Sequence record: KY304109.1
Direction: 5' to 3' (one strand)
Source of the DNA: a phage
DNA: 335 bases
Shown: positions 1-335 of the stretch, in pieces
Numbering within the stretch: position 1 is the stretch's first letter
Layout: each line of letters begins with the position of its first letter
Notes under the pieces: generated by a model
The model's database searches: none
What the model was told of the DNA's origin: nothing
The model's input: the letters and a program-made list of their open reading frames with translations, nothing else
Made by a program: the position numbers and the translations under genes

Positions 1-335
1 CGCACGATACCACTTCACCTCGGGCAATGGCGCAAACTCTGCGGAATCTGACGCTGGGTAAACCATTGGGCGACAGCCAACCGGCGCAGCTGGTGCAATG
101 GATGAAAGGCAATACCACCGGTGCACCGAGCATTCAAGCTGGACTGCCTGCTTCCTGGGTTGTGGGGGAAAAAACCGGCAACGGCGGCTATAGCACAACC
201 AAACATATCGCGGTGATCTGGCCAAAAGATCGTGCGCCGCTGATTCTGGTCACTTACTTCACCCAGCCTCAACCTAAGGCAGAAAGCCGTCGCGATGTAT
301 TAGCGTCGGCGGCTAAAATCGTCACCGACGCTATA
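1..335 (+). CDS. blaCTX-M: Class A extended-spectrum beta-lactamase, CTX-M family (group 1-like), partial CDS truncated at both window edges; first complete codon at nt 3, last at 333-335; no start or stop codon in window
   Basis: The + strand frame starting at nt 3 is open for 111 codons. Its translation matches the C-terminal third of CTX-M enzymes as I recall them: [83 protein letters not shown]. The nucleotide sequence from about nt 207 to 329 matches my recollection of blaCTX-M-15 exactly. The frame is missing from the supplied ORF track, presumably because it has no stop codon in the window. Confidence 0.95.
171..179 (+). other. blaCTX-M: Codons for the conserved class A beta-lactamase KTG motif (Ambler Lys234-Thr235-Gly236)
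   Basis: Codons aaa-acc-ggc encode K-T-G in the context [11 protein letters not shown], the position of the KTG box on the B3 strand of class A enzymes. Ambler numbering was derived by counting back from Arg276 and forward from Asp179 and is approximate. Confidence 0.85.

Follow-up and report, generated by a model that had tools for sequence, protein, structure and literature searches.

The question raised by the window, that is, the whole 335-nt stretch of phage sequence record KY304109.1 analyzed here, is whether it carries a piece of a new β-lactamase or of a familiar one. The initial annotation, made from the letters alone, had taken it for a known resistance gene of the CTX-M family and not for a new system, and the best matches, which are to the common blaCTX-M-15 and blaCTX-M-55, bear this out: the window is a fragment of an ordinary known gene and is not credible as a new enzyme or a new CTX-M allele. 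Beyond that annotation, the roughly 5% divergence of the window from blaCTX-M-15 called for an explanation; artefact or engineering is the most likely one. Specifically, judging by the substitution pattern, we consider it probable that the window is the 3' part of a blaCTX-M-15-lineage gene bearing 18 private substitutions in four patches, which would be of non-natural origin and never exposed to selection.

blaCTX-M-15, the commonest ESBL gene worldwide, encodes a class A serine β-lactamase and is usually plasmid-borne beside ISEcp1, within a mobile unit that has ISEcp1 upstream and orf477 downstream. The ESBL phenotype is hydrolysis of oxyimino-cephalosporins that is inhibited by clavulanate. 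The C-terminal part of the native enzyme comprises the KTG motif, strand β3 with Ser237 and Gly240, which makes up one wall of the active site, strands β4 and β5, Arg276, and the C-terminal helix. In the reference locus from plasmid pC15-1a, ISEcp1 sits upstream of blaCTX-M-15; the window itself comes without flanks.

The window covers the last 111 sense codons of a CTX-M group 1 gene

Frame 3 of the + strand (3-335) is stop-free throughout its 111 codons and is the sole stop-free frame of the window; its product, which ends in AAKIVTDAI, was assigned by Pfam to serine β-lactamase families. The CTX-M family, originally recognized in the translation, was recovered by blastn, NCBIfam and structure matches alike, and the best matches were to CTX-M enzymes, not to another class A enzyme. 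The NCBIfam CTX-M HMM (NF033089) scored 210.1 bits over profile positions 182-290 of 291, to be read against a curated whole-protein cut-off of 570 bits that a fragment spanning 37% of the model cannot reach, and the top matches in a search of solved structures were CTX-M-15 chains (E ~3e-61). The NCBIfam KLUC HMM (NF000452) gave a near-equal 212.1 bits on the same fragment, likewise far short of its whole-protein cut-off. With KLUC and CTX-M scores so similar on a C-terminal fragment, naming by HMM alone could mislabel such pieces.

Base-by-base alignment to blaCTX-M-15 of pC15-1a (NC_005327, locus L001; WP_000239590.1) places window position 1 at CDS nucleotide 539, the second base of codon 180, so that bases 1-2 are the tail of that codon, and position 335 at CDS nucleotide 873, immediately before TAA, with the stop codon just beyond the window. 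The open reading frame fragment at 3-335 (+ strand), supported by blastn, HMM and alignment, corresponds to precursor residues 181-291, Ambler ~178-290, which is the extent originally proposed; the description "internal fragment" was right as to fragment and slightly loose as to internal, since the sequence runs to the last sense codon. Gene identity and coordinates are direct observations: the window is the last 111 sense codons of a CTX-M group 1 β-lactamase gene of the blaCTX-M-15 lineage. We take Ambler positions to follow from precursor numbers by offsets of -3, -2 and -1, with KTG, D240G and N288D (CTX-M-1 vs CTX-M-3) as anchors.

The class A K234-T235-G236 motif (AAA ACC GGC; 171-179, + strand) is intact by translation and by alignment to the CTX-M-15 structure, as is, by translation and the Ambler numbering anchored as above, the CTX-M hallmark Arg276 (CGC; 291-293, + strand). 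At Ambler 240, base-by-base and allele comparison showed the codon GGC (186-188, + strand), encoding Gly, the state of CTX-M-15 and CTX-M-55; this residue had been read correctly from the outset, and CTX-M-3 lies one mismatch further from the window, at 95.7%. The positions of the catalytic Ser70-X-X-Lys73, Ser130-Asp-Asn and Glu166 fall upstream of codon 181, outside the window.

Two other features were considered and set aside. An antisense ORF of 85 codons (15-272, - strand) is equally open in native blaCTX-M-15 (1510-1767 of locus L001) and is a by-product of composition. An Rfam match to the mir-138 precursor at 82-128 (+ strand), at 19.3 bits vs a gathering threshold of 50 (E = 0.12), is a chance match.

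The substitutions are private to the window in the collections searched

The placement in CTX-M group 1, close to CTX-M-15, was upheld by blastn against 72,556 plasmids, which matched 4412 records: the best match, blaCTX-M-15/-55, was 96.0% identical over 6-330 (E = 3e-147), followed over the same interval by CTX-M-3 (95.7%), CTX-M-32 (95.1%) and CTX-M-1 (94.8%), with the remaining CTX-M groups (CTX-M-2, -8 and -14) at 74-76% DNA identity. The 96.0% ceiling also applied among 5,426 complete E. coli genomes (1275 matches in 1188 genomes) and, likewise by blastn, among phage records. Canonical blaCTX-M-15 was observed in two records of phages or phage-plasmids, Enterobacter phage LAU1 (MN688132, 27786-28110) and Escherichia phage JL22 (ON018986, 62531-62855).

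Compared with blaCTX-M-15 of pC15-1a along its full length, the window shows 18 substitutions and 0 indels (317/335 bases identical, 94.6%), and its product shows 12 replacements (99/111 residues identical, 89.2%), in line with the ~94% and ~89% anticipated in the initial annotation. The closest proteins found in a word-indexed search were 88-89% identical to the product and had the CTX-M-15 residues at the changed sites.

We then sought the variant bases themselves. Sixteen of the 18 occur in none of the seven sampled alleles (CTX-M-1, -2, -3, -8, -14, -32 and -64), so a mosaic assembled from known CTX-M groups is ruled out. Canonical CTX-M-15 sets an identity that is surpassed by none of the 4412 plasmid or 1275 E. 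coli matches; hence, the plasmid and E. coli collections contain none of the 13 internal variants on that backbone. Exact-word searches with variant words of 20-30 bases returned zero occurrences in a set of one genome per species for 185,579 species, zero in 241 million metagenome records and zero in 2.9 million viral contigs, collections searched largely by exact word, from which a rare environmental relative could escape. The exact 111-residue product is not among ~15 billion catalogued proteins, and no closer public relative emerged from blastn (plasmids, E. coli genomes, phages), variant words or protein searches. As for published work, S237N, G242S, D233E, N245K and D246H are not reported for CTX-M in the searchable literature, the single match there concerning SHV. 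The absence of these variants from the public data searched is thus an observation in its own right.

Short contigs have contributed numerous corrupted or frameshifted CTX-M fragments to the public protein collection (among them P0005, P0014 and P0017), and one of these, the CTX-M-14-like P0005, carries Lys in place of Asn245. CTX-M fragments laden with errors are evidently not uncommon in public assemblies.

The substitution pattern looks like change that was never filtered by selection

As a natural baseline, we used the matching 335 bases of CTX-M-1, -2, -3, -8, -14, -32 and -64. By the Nei-Gojobori method, the window vs CTX-M-15 yields Sd 4.5, Nd 13.5 and dN/dS 1.04, whereas comparisons between natural CTX-M groups over the same codons yield dN/dS of 0.05-0.20. 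The 18 changes are spread over codon positions 1, 2 and 3 as 6:5:7; natural alleles have ~70% of their differences at position 3, and the probability of 7 or fewer out of 18 at that rate is 0.006. The signature of purifying selection, dN/dS well below 1 with an excess of third-position change, is absent from the window. When 18 random substitutions were simulated on the CTX-M-15 fragment, they produced 12.8 +/- 1.8 replacements, compared with the 12 observed, and 58% of the simulated sequences stayed stop-free, so the open frame is weak evidence of selection. These statistics were measured directly on the sequence; as a pattern, they look like change that selection never filtered.

It follows from these selection tests that the sequence should not count as a new variant, and its Gly240 is not to be taken as a phenotype. 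A natural and functional allele, either a new member of CTX-M group 1 or a chromosomal progenitor of the Kluyvera type, 12 residues away from CTX-M-15, would be in keeping with the open frame, with the intact KTG, Gly240 and Arg276, with the about equal KLUC and CTX-M HMM scores (212 vs 210 bits), and with the fact that other class A enzymes do have, if rarely, some of the new residues. However, such an allele should share the natural range of dN/dS and the third-position excess, and 11% protein divergence should bring far more silent change, as illustrated by CTX-M-8, which differs from CTX-M-15 at 69 bases yet in only 14 residues. The 126-base stretch identical to CTX-M-15, the failure to avoid conserved sites, the presence of residues unseen in 93 relatives, and the lack of any record sharing the variants in the collections searched all weigh against this explanation, which we consider very unlikely.

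Replacements at conserved sites predict an impaired enzyme

In Ambler numbering, the replacements are R178H, A198P, R204P, T209Q, A219P, D233E, S237N, G242S, N245K, D246H, G289A and L290I. Eleven of the 12, including D233E, S237N, N245K and D246H, are at columns invariant across the sampled CTX-M groups. For a wider view, we searched 1.84 billion cluster representatives exhaustively and aligned 93 diverse class A sequences from among them, with identities of 40-83%. Mean conservation in this alignment was 0.55 at the changed sites, 0.46 over all sites and 0.14-0.20 at the sites that vary between natural CTX-M groups, showing that the replacements do not avoid conserved positions. The residue found in the window was present in 0/93 class A enzymes at R204P, G242S, N245K and D246H, and in 1/93 at R178H and at A198P; Glu233, Asn237, Gln209, Pro219 (5/93) and Ala289 are infrequent but present among natural class A enzymes, and D233E, L290I, G289A and S237N are conservative replacements.

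Several of the replaced residues have known roles. Ser237, needed for cefotaxime hydrolysis, is among the residues that confer the extended spectrum, and cefotaxime selection favours the wild-type Ser237 over every substitution (PMC9837174). Asp233 and Asp246, each 96% conserved in class A, form a short hydrogen bond that joins β3 to β4, and Asn245 bonds Phe68 and helps place Ser70 (PMC13584895). All four of these residues are altered in the window. The codon for Ambler 237 (180-182) is AAC, encoding Asn, where every sampled CTX-M allele has Ser; the Asp233/Asp246 pair, a conserved second-shell feature of class A enzymes of the non-TEM/SHV type, and Asn245 are missing, with Glu233, His246 and Lys245 in their place, whereas among the 93 class A enzymes the wild-type residues occur at 85% (Asp233), 90% (Asn245) and 96% (Asp246). 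Because of S237N, the lost Asp233-Asp246 bond and N245K, a full-length protein with these changes is predicted to be impaired, at least, or especially, for cefotaxime. Loss of function is, in this sense, what we infer from the sequence. Nor is Gly240, linked to ceftazidime hydrolysis in the initial annotation, evidence of that activity here, given the unselected pattern and the loss of Ser237 and of the Asp233/Asp246 pair.

The same residues could be viewed the other way around, as those of a real descendant of CTX-M-15 with a remodelled β3-turn-β4 hairpin (D233E, S237N, G242S, N245K and D246H) and three new prolines. Strong positive selection on the substrate or inhibitor profile could, in principle, give both a dN/dS of ~1 and clustering in the active-site wall. 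We find such a descendant very unlikely.

The changes are confined to four patches

The distribution of the 18 differences along the window (all + strand, from the base-by-base alignment) is patchy. A terminal patch at 1-5 has 2 of its 5 bases changed, turning CGT into CAC (R178H). The second patch, at 63-137, holds 6 differences, which account for A198P, R204P, T209Q (2 bases), A219P and a silent change in Q222. The densest patch, at 168-206, covers the β3-turn-β4 hairpin (Ambler 233-246) and has 7 differences within 170-204, namely those responsible for D233E, S237N, G242S, N245K and D246H plus silent changes at 185 and 197. The other terminal patch, at 331-335, has 3 of the last 5 bases changed, turning GGT TTG into GCT ATA (G289A, L290I). 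There are no changes in 6-60, 141-169 and 205-330, the last of which is a run of 126 bases 100% identical to blaCTX-M-15. Under uniform placement of 18 changes, a clean run of this length has P = 0.0027, so the changes cannot be described as uniform random error and call for a structured process of some kind. Uniformly spread divergence, which in a match to a chromosomal Kluyvera homologue would have spoken against the initial annotation, is accordingly not what the window shows.

The spectrum of the changes is uneven as well. G on the + strand is the starting base in ten of the 18 (P = 0.02), and five of these ten are G>C, normally the rarest substitution class; transitions and transversions stand at 7:11, and the bases neighbouring the changes form no consistent pattern. 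A decay of read quality along 1-204 was considered and dropped, the trend being weak and post hoc (P = 0.03).

The altered ends (1-5 and 331-335), with the final base falling on the last sense codon, are reminiscent of primer-derived or low-quality ends. A separate coincidence concerns MA-2, a widely used CTX-M consensus primer (CCGCRATATGRTTGGTGGTG). At 194-213, the change G204C (GAT to CAT, D246H) coincides with the sole mismatch of MA-2 to blaCTX-M-15. Primer-derived sequence was rejected for this interval, as the window differs from MA-2 at 197 and 203 and runs past the primer on both sides, and the agreement at 204 is probably fortuitous.

Patches of difference (63-137, 170-204 and both ends) between stretches identical to CTX-M-15 are also what a natural mosaic would display, if at least two short patches of blaCTX-M-15 had been replaced by recombination with an unknown divergent class A gene, and CTX-M hybrids of the CTX-M-64/-123/-132 type do exist, CTX-M-64 resembling group 9 in the 5' half of this region. 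But the patches consist mostly of replacements rather than silent changes, the opposite of what a donor under selection would contribute; 16 of the 18 variant bases are foreign to every sampled CTX-M group; and the donor would need Pro204, Ser242, Lys245 and His246, each of them seen in 0/93 class A enzymes. We therefore hold this kind of recombination to be very improbable.

Neutral evolution of a decaying pseudogene remnant of blaCTX-M-15, for instance one truncated by an insertion sequence, would be expected to give dN/dS of ~1, and the window does hold the 3' part of the gene only. However, blaCTX-M-15 was mobilised only decades ago, and neutral change in the time since then would fall orders of magnitude short of 5%. 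Decay also predicts indels, an even spread and a transition bias, as opposed to the 0 indels, the 126-base clean run and the transition:transversion ratio of 7:11 seen here, and no intermediate states appear among thousands of CTX-M-15 copies, making this route extremely unlikely.

Targeted hypermutation, by a diversity-generating retroelement (DGR) or a cytosine deaminase, would suit the patchiness and the 10 of 18 changes from G, which, read on the opposite strand, are C>T and C>G, but it merits next to no credence: 1 of the 18 changes is from A and 4 are from T, unlike DGR adenine mutagenesis, the C changes occur with all 5' neighbours (T, A, G and C), T and C on the + strand changed too, and we know of no DGR or deaminase system that acts on bla genes.

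Possible sources of the changes

The explanation that we favour, unselected and non-natural change on a blaCTX-M-15 fragment, would involve a backbone consisting of codons 181-291 of a blaCTX-M-15-lineage gene, without the stop codon, and one of several possible sources of alteration. The substitutions could be errors made where a read or consensus was of low quality; they could stem from laboratory mutagenesis, whether random, error-prone, cassette-based or with doped oligonucleotides; or the sequence could have been altered or generated in silico. These three origins, sequencing error, laboratory mutagenesis and in-silico editing, fit both the patches and the lack of selection, and 335 bases cannot separate them. 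The non-natural origin is itself what we infer from the pattern of the changes.

Several observations count against an artefact. The frame stays open, although this is weak evidence in view of the simulations. The changes cluster in patches, which simple uniform error does not explain and which recombination with an unknown relative would likewise produce. All of them are substitutions, and the complete lack of indels is unusual for most raw-read error at 5%. Several replacements are conservative, and some of the new residues are found, if rarely, in natural class A enzymes. Finally, exact-word searching could have passed over a rare environmental relative.

Implications and relationship to known CTX-M enzymes

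The window extends nothing in the biology of blaCTX-M-15, and its interest resides in what it implies for annotation. Resistance-gene pipelines would label such a fragment "CTX-M-like, 89% identity", and this label could suggest, wrongly, a new allele or a progenitor from the environment. Were the changes real and the protein functional, a CTX-M enzyme that does without Ser237 and the Asp233/Asp246 pair would hold moderate interest for β-lactamase enzymologists.

Among known enzymes, CTX-M-2, -8 and -14 share family and fold with the window but bear the usual marks of natural divergence, with 69-74 base differences, ~70% of them at third positions, and dN/dS of 0.07-0.11, a signature that the window does not carry. 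The KLUC family, of the Kluyvera cryocrescens type, is near-equal by HMM, whereas the nearest DNA is in all cases blaCTX-M-15/-55 at 96%, the comparison with KLUC having been made at the HMM and protein level; the window product shares just 76% identity with P0002, a Kluyvera fragment from the protein collection. Within group 1, CTX-M-3, -1 and -32 (94.8-95.7% over 6-330) are more distant than CTX-M-15 through their own allele-defining bases, that is, Asp240 in CTX-M-3 and -1 and Asn288 in CTX-M-1 and -32, and none of them carries the variants of the window. The window alone has the 18 private substitutions and 12 replacements that set it apart from blaCTX-M-15/-55, with which it has Gly240, KTG and Arg276 in common and to which it is 100% identical over 205-330.
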